Below are positions 27,367 through 64,000 of a stretch of DNA of 64,000 nucleotides, one piece after another. Origin of the DNA: Cyanobacteria bacterium auto_48_18 (GTDB lineage: Bacteria; Cyanobacteriota; Vampirovibrionia; Obscuribacterales; Obscuribacteraceae); NCBI GenBank assembly GCA_036170915.1, contig JAVHQC010000036.1, positions 1 to 64,000 on the forward strand, in the 5' to 3' direction. The notes beneath the pieces were generated by a model, which searched no databases, was not told the origin of the DNA, and saw only the letters and a program-made list of their open reading frames with translations. The position numbers and the translations under genes were made by a program. Within the stretch, counting starts at the first letter, position 1. Each line of letters opens with the position of its first letter.

Positions 27367-28359
27367 TTGAAGTTGGAGCAAAAAATGGCAGCGCTGGTGC
27401 AACTGGATAAATTGGTCGTAGACGTTCTCGTCGATAACCAGAGTGATAGCTATTCAAGTAAACCTGCCCATGTCTCTCCTGAGTTCAATAATGTCATTAG
27501 TGCTGGTGCCAACGAAATATCCGGCAAAACGCTTTGCTGTGCCCAGCTGGGCTTTTCAGTAATGTTGACAGCCTTTGTGAGTGAAAGACAGCACAAGCTT
27601 CTATTTGATGTTGGCCCTGAAGCAGAGATATTTTTACGCAATTGTGAAAATTTGGGCGTGGCATTGAATGACGTAGAAGAAGTGGCAATCTCTCATGGGC
27701 ACTGGGATCACATGGGTGCGCTGCTTGGAGCTATGGATAAGGTTACTGGTGGCAAGCGCCAGGTCAATTGCCACGTTAACCCTGGTATGTTTCTCGAGCG
27801 AGCAGTGCAGTTGACTGATGGGCGCATCGTGCCGTTCGAGTTGGTGCCTTCCGCTAAAGCATTAAGCGAACATGGTGCCCTCGTAATCAGCGAGGCCAAA
27901 GAGCGCACATTGCTCGATGACTACTTTTATCTCAGTGGCGAAATTGCGCGAGTAACCGACTTTGAACTTGGTCGGCAAGATCACTTGGGCCGCACCTCAG
28001 TGTCGGAACCGTGGGTGCCCGACCCTCTTTTATTGGACGAGCGTTACCTAGCTGTGCATATCAGAAACAAGGGGCTCTTGGTTTTCAGCTCGTGTTCTCA
28101 TGCCGGCATTATCAATGTGCTGCTCGATTTGCAAAGCAGATTTGCCGACATTCCTATTTATGGATTAGTCGGCGGGTTGCATCTAGTTGGCACGCTGGAA
28201 GCAATTATTCCCCAGACCATTGAGCATCTCAAAACCTTTGATCTCAAGCAGATAGTGCCTGCCCATTGCACTGGCTGGCGAGCACAACATGCTCTACTTG
28301 AAGCATTTGGTGAAGATGTAGTGATACCGTCGGCGGTAGGTAGTCGCTTTCACTTTTAA
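27367..28359 (+). CDS. MBL-fold metallohydrolase (COG1237-like)
   Basis: LLFDVG, SHGHWDH, CSHAG, GGLHL and PAHCTG motifs. The start may be 27385. Confidence 0.85.
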   Translation: MKLEQKMAALVQLDKLVVDVLVDNQSDSYSSKPAHVSPEFNNVISAGANEISGKTLCCAQLGFSVMLTAFVSERQHKLLFDVGPEAEIFLRNCENLGVALNDVEEVAISHGHWDHMGALLGAMDKVTGGKRQVNCHVNPGMFLERAVQLTDGRIVPFELVPSAKALSEHGALVISEAKERTLLDDYFYLSGEIARVTDFELGRQDHLGRTSVSEPWVPDPLLLDERYLAVHIRNKGLLVFSSCSHAGIINVLLDLQSRFADIPIYGLVGGLHLVGTLEAIIPQTIEHLKTFDLKQIVPAHCTGWRAQHALLEAFGEDVVIPSAVGSRFHF

Positions 28360-28401
28360 AGCGCTAGCAATCAGAGTAATTTTGCTCGGCGAAACCGGTC
28401 T

Positions 28402-30325
28402 ATCGCGGTAGGGAGGAGGGTTGCCCCTCCCCACCCCGCACAGATCCGGACTAGCGGCTTTCCCGCATCCGGCTCCTACCTTAGGTCTTGACGCGAAAGC
28501 GCTCCAGCGGATAGGGATGAGTAATATGACCCCATGGTAGCCAGCGGTCAGACATTGCGTACATTCGCTCCCACGTGAAGTGGTCATTCTGACTTCGGTC
28601 GCGTAGCGCTTTCAGCCAGAAACCCACCACTCGAAATCGGAACGTGTTCAACGCCCTCAGGTTTGTCGGTACTCCATAATAGTTGAAGTGTCCCGTCACC
28701 ACTGATTTTAGCCACCGACACTGATGGAGTAATGGGAAATGTTTGCGGCTTTGAAGTTCGAGTTTTATCTCAGTTATCTTTGCTCGCAGCCTCTTCTTTT
28801 CCGTCTGTCGAAGTACCACAAACATGCTATTTTTCTTGGCCCCACATATGTGAGTGAATCCCAAGAAGTTGAATGTTTCTGGCTTTCCGCCGCCACCACG
28901 CTTTTTGAAGTTGTCGATTGCGAATCGACCAAATTCAATTAATCGAGTTTTGTCGGGGTGCAGTTCAAGTTTGAACTTTTGAAGTCTCTCCTTGAGTTCA
29001 CGCAAGAACCGCTCGGCATCCGATTTATATTGGAACGTCACAATGAAGTCGTCGGCATACCGCACCATTAGAATTTCTCCGCGTGCGTTCGTCCGACGCC
29101 ATTTGTGCGCCCAGAGGTCAAACACATAGTGGAGGTAGATATTCGCAAGTAATGGGCTAACACTGCCCCCTTGTACGGTCCCGACCTCGCTATGAGTCAC
29201 CTTCCCGCCCTCAAGCACGCCGGCCTTCAACCATTTCTGGATGAGGTGCACAACGCGCTTGTCAGCTATTCGGTGCTCGATGAATTTGATTAGCCATTCG
29301 TGGTCTAAGGCATCAAAGAAGCCATGAATGTCTGCATCGAGCACCCAGCTCACCTTCTTCGTCTGAAGTCCGACGTAGAGGGCATCCAGCGCATTGTGCT
29401 GGCTGCGTCCTGGTCGGAACCCATATGAAAATCCGAGAAAGTCTGTTTCATAGATGGCATTCAAAACCAGCACCATTGCCTTTTGGACTATCTTGTCTTC
29501 TAAGGTTGGTACGCCGAGCGGTCGCTGCCGACCATCAGGCTTGGCAATGTATACCCTCTTAACAGGCTTGGCTCGGTATGCTCCTCGCTTGAGCCTTTCG
29601 GAGAGGTCTATCAGATTCTCTTCTAGGCACTCTCCGTAGTGCTCCCATGTCTCATTATCGACCCCGGCGGCGGCCTCTCGATTGATGCCGAGATATGCCT
29701 CCCACAAAGTTTCGATGTTGTAGACGTGGTGCAGAAGCGCGGTGAACCGCATCTTCTTGTTTCCTTTTGCTGCTTTGCGTATCGTCTCCAGCTCATTTTG
29801 CACACTATCCCGGCGCTGTGTCCGGAGCATGTTTTGCTCAGACGAATTCCCTTTGGTCAGGTCCCTTCCCTCCATTTGCTCCGCGGCCGTCGAATTAGGT
29901 CCGACTTTGTTCGCAAACTTCGCAGGTACTACGGACCTGTCTGACTTCCCATCCTCGTGCATCACCGTCGTACTCCGTTAGCAGTTTCCCGGTGCGGACC
30001 AGAATTGCCAGCTCTGGCCGAGTATGGGATCTCCCGTTTTCCGCTCAAGAGGTTTCCATGCGTGCAAGTGGTCTCAGACCACGTGGGGCTCAACGACAAC
30101 TCGCGAAAGCGCTGTCGTTGATGTTGCCTTCCGCACATTATCACTGCGTCGGCGTCCCAGACTAAATTTTTCGAGGCTCAATACACTGCCCGCATGTGCC
30201 CCTGTCAACACTTCGTGCATACCTCGCGGTATTGGTCACGCATGACTCGGGGTCGTTGTGATTCGCTATTTCTTCAACGTGCAACTCTTACATTTGCTGC
30301 CTCCTGCCGACTTTTAACGGCGTCC
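28402..30325 (-). mobile_element. Complete group II intron (class E-like, En-minus), inserted in a dif-like site
   Basis: Minus strand: domain V GAGCCGGATGCGGGAAAGCCGCTAGTCCGGATCT (28442-28475); domain VI with bulged A ending CCTACCGCGAT (3' end 28402); EBS1 loop GTGATAATG (30136-30144) complementary to exon IBS1 CATTATC (30326-30332), which places the 5' end at 30325 (GGACG). Confidence 0.9.
28481..29965 (-). CDS. ltrA: Group II intron reverse transcriptase/maturase without endonuclease domain
   Basis: RT0 AAAGVD, RPLGVPTLEDK, SYGFRPGR, DADI, GTVQGGSVSPLLANIYLH, YADD, FNFLGF and maturase X domain. The first ~45 codons overlap RNA domains II-III, so the real start may be later. Confidence 0.95.
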   Translation of the reverse strand: MMHEDGKSDRSVVPAKFANKVGPNSTAAEQMEGRDLTKGNSSEQNMLRTQRRDSVQNELETIRKAAKGNKKMRFTALLHHVYNIETLWEAYLGINREAAAGVDNETWEHYGECLEENLIDLSERLKRGAYRAKPVKRVYIAKPDGRQRPLGVPTLEDKIVQKAMVLVLNAIYETDFLGFSYGFRPGRSQHNALDALYVGLQTKKVSWVLDADIHGFFDALDHEWLIKFIEHRIADKRVVHLIQKWLKAGVLEGGKVTHSEVGTVQGGSVSPLLANIYLHYVFDLWAHKWRRTNARGEILMVRYADDFIVTFQYKSDAERFLRELKERLQKFKLELHPDKTRLIEFGRFAIDNFKKRGGGGKPETFNFLGFTHICGAKKNSMFVVLRQTEKKRLRAKITEIKLELQSRKHFPLLHQCRWLKSVVTGHFNYYGVPTNLRALNTFRFRVVGFWLKALRDRSQNDHFTWERMYAMSDRWLPWGHITHPYPLERFRVKT

Positions 30326-30347
30326 GATAATGTATATTATGTTTCAT
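30320..30347 (+). other. dif-like XerC/XerD recombination site
   Basis: GCGTCCGATAA-TGTATA-TTATGTTTCAT versus E. coli dif GGTGCGCATAA-TGTATA-TTATGTTAAAT: 17 contiguous identical nt (ATAATGTATATTATGTT), located between convergent genes. Confidence 0.75.
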
Positions 30348-30450: not shown

Positions 30451-31050
30451 TTACTTAGCGGTCAAGGCTTGAATAATTTCCGGCTCTATCCATTTGCGTC
30501 TGATCAAAACCTCGCCCACCGAAGAAAAGGCAAATCTTTGTTCGAGTAGGGCTATCATCATTAGATCTTCTGATACCAAACCAATCGCCATCAGCTGTAG
30601 TGCCAACAGATCGCTCACCTCTTCTTCGGGGGCAATTAAGTCTTGGCCAATTAGAAGCCCGTCCAACTCTTCTTGCGAAATAAATTGCTTTTCTAAGAAG
30701 ATTTCGCCTAACTGCCTGTCGCTTCTCAGCTGCTCTTTAACAGCCTCTTCGAGTTGCTCGAGGGTAATCATGCCAGCCGCCAGGCAAAGCTGGCCTAAAC
30801 GAAGCCGTGAGTGAAATAAGGTTTTTTCAGCGACTAAATTATTATCGGCAGAATGACTATATTCTTCGTAAGCGCGTCGAATTGAAGCGGCAGCAATCTC
30901 TGCCTGCTCATTTGCTCTGATACTTTTAAATTCTTGCGAAAGGTTCGCGATCAGCCGCAAAGCAGTAGCATCAACTTCCGCAGCGCTGGCTGAAGTTGGT
31001 AATGCTAAAGCGGATAAATGATTGCCCATCTTCAACCTTATAAGCGTCAC
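30451..31050 (-). CDS. MshEN-domain protein (putative c-di-GMP receptor)
   Basis: RLGQLCLAAGMITLEQLEEAVKEQ...QLGEIFLEKQFISQEELDGLLIGQ tandem motif plus a degenerate second pair. Confidence 0.7.
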   Translation of the reverse strand: MTLIRLKMGNHLSALALPTSASAAEVDATALRLIANLSQEFKSIRANEQAEIAAASIRRAYEEYSHSADNNLVAEKTLFHSRLRLGQLCLAAGMITLEQLEEAVKEQLRSDRQLGEIFLEKQFISQEELDGLLIGQDLIAPEEEVSDLLALQLMAIGLVSEDLMMIALLEQRFAFSSVGEVLIRRKWIEPEIIQALTAK

Positions 31051-33955: not shown

Positions 33956-34039
33956 GCCCTTGTGTCGGAACTGGTATACGAGACGCACTTAAAATGCGTT
34001 GCCCGTAAGGGATTGAGGGTTCGACTCCCTCCGAGGGCA
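33956..34039 (+). tRNA. trnL: tRNA-Leu(UAA), intronless, CCA not encoded
   Basis: Acceptor stem GCCCTTG/CGAGGGC; anticodon arm ACGCA-CTTAAAA-TGCGT; long variable arm; GAGGG-TTCGACT-CCCTC T-arm; discriminator A. Confidence 0.95.
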
Positions 34040-61144: not shown

Positions 61145-63412
61145 GTGCAAGGTGGTGGTTGGTCTAACGCGGATAGTGACTGGCAGTTAAAGAGGCTGCA
61201 GCACGATTCGGTTAAAACTGTTGATAAAGTCGTGCAAACTGTTCGTACAGTCCTGCAGGAAGAAATTGTCGCCCATGGTCAGGAATACGAGAAGATGTTC
61301 GGTAAGTCTTCTGCGCAGTACAGTGAATACGTCAACATGATCATGGAAAAGCTTGAGCAGCTGGGAGTTGCCCCTCAAGCCGTGATGGAATGGCTTGATA
61401 AGACTGCTGCTGACGGCTCAATGCCTGATAATAAATTGACTTTGTCTATGCGCGATGCCCAGTCAGAAACTATTCCGCAAATTCGACTAGCAATTCCCTT
61501 AAGTGAGCAACTACAGCCACAACAAGATTTTGGCGATGTGCCAGCACCCGCGCCTCTAGTGAATGCCGGTAGTTTACCTTTTTCAGCTTTTCCGTCGGCC
61601 CAGGTGCCGACTCCTCTCGCTGCACCCGCCTCGTTTCCGCCTGCGGTCACTAACTGGCACGCTGCGCCAGACATGGATATTACTGTTCCTCACCACCAGG
61701 CTGCAATCGCAGATACGGTGACGAGTCCGTGGGGTGTACCGGCACCAAATGCCCAACCACCGGTGGCTGCGTCTCAACCATCAGGATGGAATGTGCCCTC
61801 ACCAGCCAAAACTGGACAGAACTTTGCCATGGTTGAGCCAGTAAAATCCACGGCCTCATTGATTGCCTCTAGCTGGGACAATGACTCATCGTCTGCACAG
61901 GCTCCCGCCGCACCAGCTGCTGTTCAAAGTGGATCTACGTGGATTCCTAATGCTGCCACAACAGCTCCCGTGCAACCTATTGCTTCGTCCAGTCATAATC
62001 CTGCAGGCGGCAACGCCTTCTCGTCTCACAGTGCTTCGGCTTGGGCCTCACCTCAACCTTCGTCAGTCGGCACTAATACCCCTAATTCCTTACCGGCCTG
62101 GCCGGTTAATCCGGTAGCATCGTCTCCAACTCCTGCTTCTCCGCCTACGCCTACTCCTGCGCCTGCTCCGACTCCTACTCCTGCGCCTGCTCCTGCGCCT
62201 GCTCCAACTCCTCCACCTGCATCCATTCCTCCGCCTGCACCTCAACCCGCTCCGCCGGTGCATGTGCCTGCCCCTGTAACAGCCTGGACACCGACTGCGG
62301 TGGAGGCAGCACCGGTCATCGAGTCACAGTGGGCTGCTCCTCAAATTCCTATTCCGTCACCGACACTCGGACCAAGAAGTTCTCCCTCCATCATGACTGC
62401 TGGACCGGTTCCCGCGCAGCAGGCGGTGCCGACTACGCCACCAGCTACGATGCCAGCGGCATCTGCACCGACACCAGCTGTGATGCCATCATCACAGGTC
62501 TTTGCCGCCATGCCTACGCCAGCTCAATTGGCTCCGAAGCCTTTGACCCAGCAGGGCCTGCCGCAACTGAACCCACAAGGGCAGCCACTTCCCCATCAGT
62601 CTCAGCCGATTCAGCAACAACAACAACAGCAACAACAACAGCCAGTACAGCAGGTGCAGGCGCCACCACAACCAGTGCACGCCGTGCCCCAAAATCCGTT
62701 CAATCAGAGACCAACCACTCAACCTGGCCTACCAAAGCCATTCCCAGTTCAGCAGCCAGTTCAGCAGCCAGTTCAGCAACAACAAGCTAGTCAGCCTCTT
62801 CAGGAAGTGGCAGAATCTCGCCCATCACGCCCAGCTACTGGTGGTTGGCCAGCAGGTCCACCACCAAATCCTTACGCTGCGCAAGACAGCGCTAGTCTTA
62901 CACAAATTACACAGACACCACAGACACCACAAACACCTCAGAGACCGCAGGCACCACAGGCGATGCCGCAGGTCCCTCCTCAGCAAGTTGCGCAACTACA
63001 ACCACAACAACAACAACAGCGAATGCCGGTGCAGCAGCAATGGGTGCCGCAACAGCCACAACCACCTGCCCCTCAGCAAGCCCCCGTTCAAAATCAGTGG
63101 CCCCAGCAGGCACAACCAAATCCACAGCAGCAGCCGCCGAATCAATGGCAGCCGGCTCCACAACCGCAAGCACCGAGACAGTCAGCAGCACCGATGCCGG
63201 TGCAAGCTCAATGGCAGGCGACACCCGCACCACAGGCCCCACCTGCACCAGCTCATTTCGTCAACATTCCTAGCGTTGCCTTGAATAGCAATGGCAACGG
63301 CAACAATGGTGGCAATGGCAATGGTGCTCCAGGAAACGGGATGGCATACCAAATGCAAGGTAGTGAAAGAGATGAGGCAGAGAAATACGATCCGGCTACG
63401 GCCTGGGATTAG
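61145..63412 (+). CDS. Pro/Gln/Ala-rich intrinsically disordered protein
   Basis: GAGG RBS before GTG; about 110-aa helical N-domain followed by about 640 aa of low complexity. Confidence 0.65.
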   Translation: MQGGGWSNADSDWQLKRLQHDSVKTVDKVVQTVRTVLQEEIVAHGQEYEKMFGKSSAQYSEYVNMIMEKLEQLGVAPQAVMEWLDKTAADGSMPDNKLTLSMRDAQSETIPQIRLAIPLSEQLQPQQDFGDVPAPAPLVNAGSLPFSAFPSAQVPTPLAAPASFPPAVTNWHAAPDMDITVPHHQAAIADTVTSPWGVPAPNAQPPVAASQPSGWNVPSPAKTGQNFAMVEPVKSTASLIASSWDNDSSSAQAPAAPAAVQSGSTWIPNAATTAPVQPIASSSHNPAGGNAFSSHSASAWASPQPSSVGTNTPNSLPAWPVNPVASSPTPASPPTPTPAPAPTPTPAPAPAPAPTPPPASIPPPAPQPAPPVHVPAPVTAWTPTAVEAAPVIESQWAAPQIPIPSPTLGPRSSPSIMTAGPVPAQQAVPTTPPATMPAASAPTPAVMPSSQVFAAMPTPAQLAPKPLTQQGLPQLNPQGQPLPHQSQPIQQQQQQQQQQPVQQVQAPPQPVHAVPQNPFNQRPTTQPGLPKPFPVQQPVQQPVQQQQASQPLQEVAESRPSRPATGGWPAGPPPNPYAAQDSASLTQITQTPQTPQTPQRPQAPQAMPQVPPQQVAQLQPQQQQQRMPVQQQWVPQQPQPPAPQQAPVQNQWPQQAQPNPQQQPPNQWQPAPQPQAPRQSAAPMPVQAQWQATPAPQAPPAPAHFVNIPSVALNSNGNGNNGGNGNGAPGNGMAYQMQGSERDEAEKYDPATAWD
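62744..62779 (+). repeat. Coding tandem repeat (CCAGTTCAGCAR) x3 encoding PVQQ
   Basis: Read directly. Related coding repeats at about 62140-62225 (PTPAP), 62613-62640 (CAA) and 62910-62940 (TPQ). Confidence 0.8.
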
Positions 63413-63442
63413 TCAGGGCACTAATGGTAATTTCAAATTGCT

Positions 63443-63931
63443 CTAGTGGCTTTCGCTGCTGTTTGCTTCGAACTGAGGTCGCGACGCAATTGAGCGGTGG
63501 TTTGGCGTTTCAACCCATGATTTGAGATTTTCGAGGCGACGGCGAATATCCTTTAAAATCGATGAACACGCCACTTGATTGGCAAAAGGCAAAAAGGTTT
63601 TCGGCTCACTAAAGGTATTCAACGTCACTTCGGTACGCTCACCGTTACCGATAGGAGTCAGTATCCATGAGCCTTCAAACGATTTCAATTTTTCAGATGT
63701 AACCATTGAAAAGTCAATGCGTTTGTAAGGTGTTTCGACTTCTTTATAGGTGCAACAAGCACTGCCTATCAAAGGCAATTCACTAAAATGTTCCTCAATC
63801 AAAGCTACATTTTCATGATGAGAAACCAGCTTTCTTCTGTGAGGCTCTTTAATGCGAGATTCCTGAATTGCTTCAAAAACAGCCTGAGGTGAGCCTTCAA
63901 TTACGACCGAAGATTCAGCGCCATGATGCAC
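63443..63931 (-). CDS. SRPBCC / polyketide cyclase-like protein
   Basis: SVVIEGSPQAVFE...RIDFSMV...SFEGSWIL pattern with a C-terminal helix. Confidence 0.75.
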   Translation of the reverse strand: MHHGAESSVVIEGSPQAVFEAIQESRIKEPHRRKLVSHHENVALIEEHFSELPLIGSACCTYKEVETPYKRIDFSMVTSEKLKSFEGSWILTPIGNGERTEVTLNTFSEPKTFLPFANQVACSSILKDIRRRLENLKSWVETPNHRSIASRPQFEANSSESH

Positions 63932-64000
63932 CCTATGATTTGCGAGGGCCTCACTGTTCCAATTAGCGCCGAAAAAAGTAGAAAAAAGGCATGCCGAAGC

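Follow-up and report, generated by a model that had tools for sequence, protein, structure and literature searches.

Why should a retroelement lie inside the site at which chromosome dimers are resolved? The question is raised by a 64,000-nt stretch of DNA from Cyanobacteria bacterium auto_48_18 (positions 1 to 64,000 of contig JAVHQC010000036.1, hereafter the window), in which a complete group II intron on the minus strand interrupts a sequence resembling dif, the XerC/XerD recombination site. Comparison with related genomes makes it quite probable that this intron represents an active, endonuclease-less sublineage that homes to the Xer recombination site, and that its GGAC 5' end replaces the half of the XerC arm displaced by the insertion. 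A sequence-only reading of the window had proposed a retroelement homing to dif, and the proposal gains support from eight dif-type occupied sites, from co-variation of exon-binding site 1 (EBS1) with its target, and from empty alleles. Its recognition of dif holds; what it lacked was the way in which the intron's odd 5' end seems to rebuild the XerC arm.

The intron is 1924 nt long (28402..30325, minus strand) and runs from 5' GGACG to CGAU 3', as delimited by Rfam matches and by alignment of its 5' end to relatives. The D1–D4 ribozyme region (30069..30288, minus; RF02005) matches the entire model (positions 1–225 of 225) at 171.5 bits, the gathering score being 49, and domains V and VI (28402..28477, minus; RF00029) match positions 1–77 of 77 at 41.3 bits, the gathering score being 40. 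Domain V has an AGC catalytic triad, domain VI has an unpaired A (UA unpaired), and the intron terminates in AU. The span of 28396..30347 given earlier captured the intron itself and began too early, its first 6 nt from 28396 belonging to the 3' exon. At the 5' boundary, the window's GGACGCCG occupies the same alignment columns as the GUGCGCCG with which about 45 relatives begin, as does L002, a second intron of the genome; at the 3' boundary, ...CCGCGAU is where the Rfam model ends. At loci L003 and L004, copies with identical ends measure 1923 nt. The GGACG start agrees with the consensus GUGYG at three of five positions and aligns base for base with the GUGCG of relatives, while starts in the wider family also include GAGCG, AAGCG and AUGCG. 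Class assignment (D, E, F or g1–g4) was attempted from the accessible parts of PMC3552965 and PMC3753933, and none was reached on that basis.

The intron-encoded protein (IEP; 28481..29965, minus), located in domain IV, is a 494-residue reverse transcriptase/maturase with a YADD motif that matches TIGR04416 at 369.8 bits (cut-off 300). RVT_1 alone is matched in Pfam; no HNH endonuclease domain was found by the Pfam search, and the TIGR04416 match stops at residue 447 of 494. Differences between IEP copies are mostly synonymous, with ratios of non-synonymous to synonymous differences per site (pN/pS) of 0.10 against L094 and 0.07 against L004, and the protein is under purifying selection.

On the plus strand, the sequence adjoining the intron reads as the remainder of a dif site (30326..30347), comprising the inner XerC arm GATAA (30326-30330), the spacer TGTATA (30331-30336) and the XerD arm TTATGTTTCAT (30337-30347). 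Read on the minus strand, the same 22 nt are the 5' exon of the intron, with CAUUAUC as intron-binding site 1 (IBS1). The EBS1 loop GUGAUAAUG (30136..30144, minus), closed by a stem of CGCA (30148-30145) and UGCG (30135-30132), presents GAUAAUG, which exactly complements these last seven exon bases (7/7 Watson-Crick), and the same loop position pairs with the 5' exon in 11 relatives (RNAduplex). CAUUAUC covers the spacer edge and the inner XerC arm. Insertion is in the strand on which XerD arm, spacer and XerC arm follow one another in that order, and the insertion point falls exactly 5 nt into the XerC arm, whether in dif or in secondary dif-like sites with other spacers. As a result of the insertion, the first six intron bases, GCGTCC on the plus strand (30320..30325), now form the outer half of the XerC arm; the native outer half-arm, CGGTCT (28396..28401, plus; AGACCG as the 3' exon on the minus strand), is displaced to the far side of the intron, where it can be recognised from empty sites of the same genus. 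Joining the exons gives the empty site CGGTCTGATAA-TGTATA-TTATGTTTCAT. Its outer hexamer is CGGTCT; among the order's 71 native dif sites, 3 have this hexamer and 10 have TGGTCT. The exon coordinates, the EBS1 loop with its stem and its complementarity to CATTATC, and an empty 28-bp site between convergent genes had all been described beforehand, and each was reproduced exactly on re-reading.

Several observations support the identification of this site as dif. First, the exon 17-mer ATAATGTATATTATGTT, earlier noted as shared with Escherichia coli, has a single occurrence in E. coli K-12, within GGTGCGCATAATGTATATTATGTTAAAT, which the accessible part of Kono et al. (2011, PMC3025954) gives as the experimentally confirmed dif. 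Second, the core ATAATRTAYATTAT occurs once in the 4.94-Mb assembly, and the pattern GRTAA-N6-TTATGTTTC is present in 91 of 107 genomes of the same order, a reversed control pattern giving nearly no matches. The canonical form, with spacer TGTATA, is present in 79 genomes, one each: 71 are native, 4 contain the intron and 4 contain intron scars. Genomes with a filled or scarred canonical dif have no second canonical dif, and the conservation pattern of arm, spacer and arm holds across the 107 genomes. The 20-mer GATAATGTATATTATGTTTC is, on this comparison, the predicted near-single-copy dif of the order. Third, GC skew is consistent with a location at the terminus, as a check proposed with the original observation required. 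In the relative G076, twenty 20-kb windows sampled along a 7.02-Mb contig show positive skew between 0.1 and 2.0 Mb, values near zero between 2.4 and 3.2 Mb, negative skew between 3.4 and 6.1 Mb and a return to positive values at 6.6 Mb; the GATAATGTATATTATGTTTC site, at 3.058 Mb, lies inside the plus-to-minus switch. The window's own contig is positive from 1 to 20 kb, flat from 20 to 60 kb and negative beyond; the site, at 30.3 kb, lies in this switch zone and within a cumulative-skew plateau from 18 to 56 kb. The orientation of dif relative to skew is opposite in the window's genome (G000) and G076, so that no constant relationship holds between target strand and replichore. Two strong Xer-like recombinase genes are present in the genome (311 bits; 173 + 134 bits), both scoring below the curated XerC/XerD cut-offs of 330–335; their loci are G000:C16:68665-69669 and C35:80352-81338. 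The window at 30326-30347, and the order as a whole, carry a proteobacterial-type dif; these data define such a site for a lineage with cyanobacterial affinity. For the phylum Cyanobacteria, Kono et al., in the accessible part of their survey, predicted none (0/5 genomes; PMC3025954).

Secondary dif-like sites, with the same arms and other spacers, recur in several genomes of the genus at up to seven per genome. Examples are G027:C31, G028:C1, G030:C10 and G032:C614, and G026:C32, G027:C180 and G034:C10; GATAATGCTCCTTATGTTTC is found in four genomes and GGTAATATCAGTTATGTTTC in three. Some of these sites are intron targets, and they may belong to plasmids or Xer-exploiting elements.

The bases that the intron contributes to the filled site are themselves arm-like. 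A position weight matrix of the outer XerC half-arm was derived from the 71 native canonical sites, seven filled or scarred rows having been excluded beforehand. Position -2 is C in 71/71 native arms, -3 is T in 55 and G in 16, -4 is G in 55 and -5 is G in 54. The intron-derived GCGTCC scores 4.86 bits, placing it in the top 0.68% of all hexamers and above 21% of native arms; a hypothetical canonical GUGCGC end would yield GCGCAC, which at -9.09 bits falls under every native site. The two non-consensus bases of the intron, G2 and A3, are those that supply the C at -2 and the T at -3. Resemblance of the intron start to the 3' exon start was not seen in about 30 relatives with placeable ends, and the likeness to an arm is therefore not a general property of the family. 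Scars provide a further view of the same junction: about 100 nt of the intron 5' end lie beside dif in L115 and L175 (nhmmer E about 1e-7), with shorter orthologous 5' remnants at dif in L148 and L132 and possibly in L110. These scars are later deletions that spared the dif-adjoining end, and not 5'-truncated products of aborted reverse transcription. We infer that a filled site would still work as dif, and that the intron 5' end may have been selected for this.

The most serious alternative accepts homing to dif by sequence and treats the likeness of the first four intron bases to the XerC outer arm as coincidental or due to another cause, the filled dif being impaired, or tolerated because XerC needs little of the outer arm. 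Native outer arms are variable, with 26 different hexamers, a GGGCG variant of the intron and one scar match the arm poorly, and intron position 2 varies in the wider family (GUG, GAG, AAG, AUG), where a non-U needs no special cause. Coincidence has to accommodate, however, that both departures from GUGCG yield exactly the invariant C and the prevalent T, that so few hexamers score equally, that no relative resembles its own 3' exon in this manner, and that the scars retain a GGACG-type end. This explanation is accordingly possible, if somewhat doubtful.

The distribution of related introns bears directly on targeting. An IEP search of the genome collection, in which all counts are lower bounds, returned at least 80 loci, 49 among them with a recognisable intron 5' region. 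Those with at least 82% IEP identity and a preserved 5' end (L003, L004 and L059) all follow a dif-like exon; the remaining 46 of the 49, consisting of relatives at no more than 62% identity, L005 and L002, have unrelated exons. L005, at 81% IEP identity, is truncated at its 5' end, has no dif-like site in its vicinity, and speaks neither for nor against targeting. A metagenome scan with the sublineage's 5' 26-mer gave at least seven contigs, all with a dif-like exon, and an order-wide scan with the 5' 19-mer gave nine places in 7 of 107 genomes, all adjoining dif or dif-like sequence. G100 contains three intron copies, all in dif or dif-like sites. The sublineage has so far been found only in genomes, and in metagenome contigs, nearest to Candidatus Obscuribacterales records.

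When loci with common flanks are counted once, there are eight distinct occupied sites. The first is the canonical dif, filled in four genomes (G000, G025, G029 and G100). The others read, in the sense of the intron, ACGAAACATCA-TATGAA-TTATC, ATGAAACATAA-GGGGCG-TTACC, ACGAAACATAA-CACTCG-TTATC, TCAAAACATAA-TCACAG-TTACC, ATGAACCATTT-TGTTTC-TTGTC, ATTGAGCATAA-TGTACC-CTATC, and AAGAAATATAA followed by a 7-nt spacer and GTATC. Aligned, they are conserved from -22 to -12 and from -5 to -1 and free from -11 to -6, as in a recombinase site, where two arms enclose a spacer; even the degenerate ones retain 8–9 of 11 XerD-arm bases. EBS1 follows its target: L136 has GAUAUGG where the target is CCGUAUC, restoring two changed pairs, L092 has GAUAACG where target position -6 is G, and L091 has GGUAAUG with CGUUAUC, all seven positions being paired with two wobbles. 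Examination of close IEP homologs, suggested at the outset as a check, thus returned dif-like 5' exons and an EBS1 that co-varies in three copies, together with the 46 more distant relatives inserted after unrelated exons. A ninth occupied site is suggested by a contig from an RNA library, in which the 3' exon is homologous to the XerC-side flank of the empty secondary site L124/L122 and the 5' exon is unseen.

CATTATC occurs 586 times in the genome, yet one copy of the intron is present there. EBS1 alone is therefore insufficient, and a further determinant must read the XerD-arm region from -12 to -22. RNAduplex comparison of exon positions -19 to -7 with domain I in 42 relatives gave no consistent position for an EBS2. 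GUGUAUU was considered for this role and rejected; it pairs with the canonical spacer and is invariant in copies whose spacers differ. A promiscuous element that inserts at any EBS1 match, with only harmless dif-like insertions surviving, would fit a pairing that provides merely 7 bp of specificity and the want of an EBS2 partner. Such an element should nonetheless leave more than a single copy among the 586 matches, other intergenic insertions should be equally harmless and none is seen, all three G100 copies and every junction found in metagenomes are dif-like, and the degenerate sites keep most of their XerD-arm bases; we regard promiscuity as unlikely.

Comparison within the window's genus (g1) provides evidence of recent movement. 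The canonical site is filled in three genomes (G000, G025 and G029), empty in 11 and not found in one. The empty sites read TGGTCT|GATAA or CGGTCT|GATAA, as do the window's two exons when joined, and the empty allele whose existence had been put forward as a test is thus represented by orthologous sites in 11 same-genus genomes. Identity of the intron amounts to 99.9% with L003, 98.6% with L004 and 94% with L094, and the gene on the 5'-exon side is orthologous among g1 genomes at 75–80% nucleotide identity. The mixture of filled and empty sites, the near-identity of introns amid flanks of 75–80%, and the low pN/pS together indicate that the intron is probably an active element and not a single inherited insertion. 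One ancient insertion at dif, inherited vertically without active targeting, is very improbable: the scars of L132 and L148, from two g18 genomes, are orthologous, with common downstream sequence, and suit it in that some insertions are old and inherited, but it runs counter to the intron identity, to the filled and empty sites of one genus, to eight occupied sites with different spacers, to the co-variation of EBS1 and to purifying selection on the IEP. Entry into dif as a circle, by Xer recombination in the manner of integrative mobile elements exploiting Xer (IMEX), has as little to commend it, since the location in dif and the mixed flanks of L004 are set against one dif-like site in the genome with none at the intron 3' end, an inserted segment that begins and ends exactly at the ribozyme ends, a break that falls within the XerC arm, at 5 nt from the spacer in which Xer strand exchange takes place, the 7/7 pairing of EBS1 with IBS1, and the chance that L004 is an assembly chimera across a repeat. 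L004 is a contig of 3655 nt whose flank on the XerC side matches the empty canonical dif locus L118 at 97.5% identity, and whose sequence from the spacer through the XerD arm and onwards is unrelated to that locus; either Xer recombination has integrated an element at dif here, or the assembly has joined two intron copies into a chimera.

A number of points weigh against homing to dif with rebuilding of the XerC arm. The L059/L134 variant begins GGGCG and gives an arm at -1.93 bits, and the L115 scar has C at -3, which is found in no native site. The GGACG start departs from the conserved GUGYG at two positions and could impair splicing. No exon-exon joint was found in contigs from four metatranscriptome libraries (four studies) that cover the intron at 95–99% likeness, although these contigs may contain DNA and are uninformative on splicing either way. 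No determinant for recognition of the XerD arm emerged from the RNA duplexes, the best of which was equalled by 438 of 500 shuffled arms. In the window's contig, the skew evidence consists of a broad plateau, on one side of which there are only 30 kb of sequence. All data derive from metagenome assemblies, in which a repeat of 1.9 kb makes chimeric contigs likely to form (L004 is a possible instance) and many intron copies are cut by contig ends, and the genomes of one order are not independent samples.

The favoured explanation, homing of the sublineage to the Xer site, would proceed as follows. Pairing of EBS1 with IBS1 sets the junction, and the U preceding EBS1 could pair with A or G at +1. 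The IEP would be the likely reader of the XerD-arm region, because no RNA complement to the XerD arm of at least 6 nt, G-U pairs allowed, was found in the first 420 nt of the intron. In other introns, distal 5'-exon positions are read by the protein. Reverse transcription would be primed from replication intermediates, that is, from nascent strands at forks, on which endonuclease-less introns depend for priming according to the accessible part of a review (PMC4424553). After insertion, the intron's GGAC would stand in for the displaced outer XerC half-arm, which is (A/G)GAC in native sites, and the filled site would stay usable as dif. Insertion would thereby be tolerated at an essential, conserved and near-single-copy site, offering the same target order-wide. 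Splicing at the GGACG end would be expected to produce the ligated-exon junction ...ACAUUAUC|AGACCGG. A partner that co-varies with A3 in an epsilon-epsilon' interaction was sought by eye, and no convincing column was seen. We set at even chances a broader proposal: that the first nucleotides of the ribozyme would be under dual selection, as 5' splice site and as XerC outer arm, that dif would be occupied without being destroyed, that the chromosomal dif and the dif-like sites of other replicons or Xer-exploiting elements would form an order-wide landing pad, and that decayed copies would form part of the host's working dif.

RmInt1 of Sinorhizobium meliloti is an endonuclease-less group II intron that retrohomes to a specific site. 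Introns of this type resemble the one described here in combining a ribozyme with a reverse transcriptase/maturase that has no endonuclease domain, in having the insertion point set by EBS1-IBS1 pairing, in the expectation of a primer from replication intermediates, and in the occurrence of full-length and truncated copies (in part from PMC4424553, accessible sections). Unlike them, the present intron has as its target a dimer resolution site and its look-alikes and not an insertion sequence element or gene; its 5' end is GGACG, and no EBS2-IBS2 pairing was found. Group IIC-attC introns such as S.ma.I2, which insert into integron attC sites (accessible part of PMC4424553), likewise use a tyrosine-recombinase site, an imperfect inverted repeat conserved across many genomes. 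That site is attC, the substrate of IntI, whereas dif is the substrate of XerC/XerD; group IIC introns also read a DNA stem-loop and a short IBS1 without EBS2 (in part from the same sections of PMC4424553), whereas the present intron has a 7-nt EBS1, an AGC triad in domain V and a different domain I (Rfam D1D4-6). In place of the stem-loop target and short IBS1 that mark group IIC, this locus has the 7-nt EBS1 and arms conserved in sequence, which mark its target as sequence-specific.

Among elements that use dif, IMEX (CTX-phi, TLC-phi and the gonococcal island) and pdif modules similarly take it as a conserved near-single-copy entry point, and their integration leaves a functional dif on one side. 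They rely on Xer strand exchange in the spacer and possess two flanking dif-like sites; in contrast, reverse splicing inside the XerC arm is proposed here, with a single site whose half-arm is drawn from the ribozyme's own 5' end. The genome has that single site, with no dif-like site at the intron 3' junction. To our knowledge, all described dif-exploiting elements use Xer recombination itself. The R2 retroelement resides in 28S ribosomal DNA, which is comparable as a safe haven and an invariant target in every genome; its mechanism and host domain are unrelated, and the haven predicted here is a protein-binding site and not a multicopy gene.

As far as its accessible sections extend, the review of Zimmerly and Semper (2015, PMC4424553) recognises three target types for bacterial group II introns, namely homing sites, terminators and attC. 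An intron at dif was not known to have been described when the locus was first noticed, and no published account was found in full-text literature that includes few subscription journals, where absence is not proof; in the accessible texts the two topics co-occur only as separate matters. A published survey of intron neighbourhoods mentions neither Xer nor the terminus. If a retroelement does enter dif by reverse splicing, the dimer resolution site would be parasitised in a new manner, and dif would join attC as a second tyrosine-recombinase site targeted by an intron. That the XerC arm appears to be rebuilt provides a directly testable case in which one short sequence would have both an RNA-catalytic and a DNA protein-binding role. 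A natural intron for a site conserved across genomes could also serve as a template for broad-host targetrons, and annotation of dif in these genomes must allow for a 1.9-kb interruption.

Other collections contain more distant relatives of the intron. The 5' 26-mer had 0 matches in viral contigs, and the plasmid collection gave distant relatives only, the best plasmid-borne IEPs being 54–57% identical and none spanning a dif junction. About 3,000 Klebsiella plasmid records are 80–90% identical to part of the intron's domain I, none over the dif junction; related introns are thus very common on enterobacterial plasmids. The second intron of the genome, L002 (G000:C33:87089-88562), is 68% identical and starts with the canonical GUGCG. 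There the pairing is between EBS1 CCCUAA and the exon TTAGGG, and the intron lies about 8 nt after a terminator-like hairpin and T-run (ATACAACT...AGTTGTATTTTTT).

Two genes converge on the dif site of the window. The open reading frame at 27367..28359 (plus) has a weak Pfam match to the metallo-beta-lactamase fold, and that at 30451..31050 (minus), on the strand of the intron, is the 75–80% orthologue in same-genus genomes noted above. A scan for promoters and terminators around the intron gave counts no higher than in shuffled sequences, and Pfam searches of open reading frames beside the secondary-site copies L094, L059 and L004 were uninformative. In about ten genomes (genus g34, L176-L184 and L190), the XerC arm of dif is immediately adjoined by a perfect 10-bp palindrome, GCCTCCACCG/CGGTGGAGGC; it was considered as an intron scar and rejected when nhmmer found it dissimilar to the intron. 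Window positions 62001-64000, where the skew plateau ends, show a sharp local dip in GC skew (-0.185 in one 2-kb bin). A transfer RNA gene (RF00005, 54 bits) is located at 33956-34039 (plus), 3.6 kb from dif.

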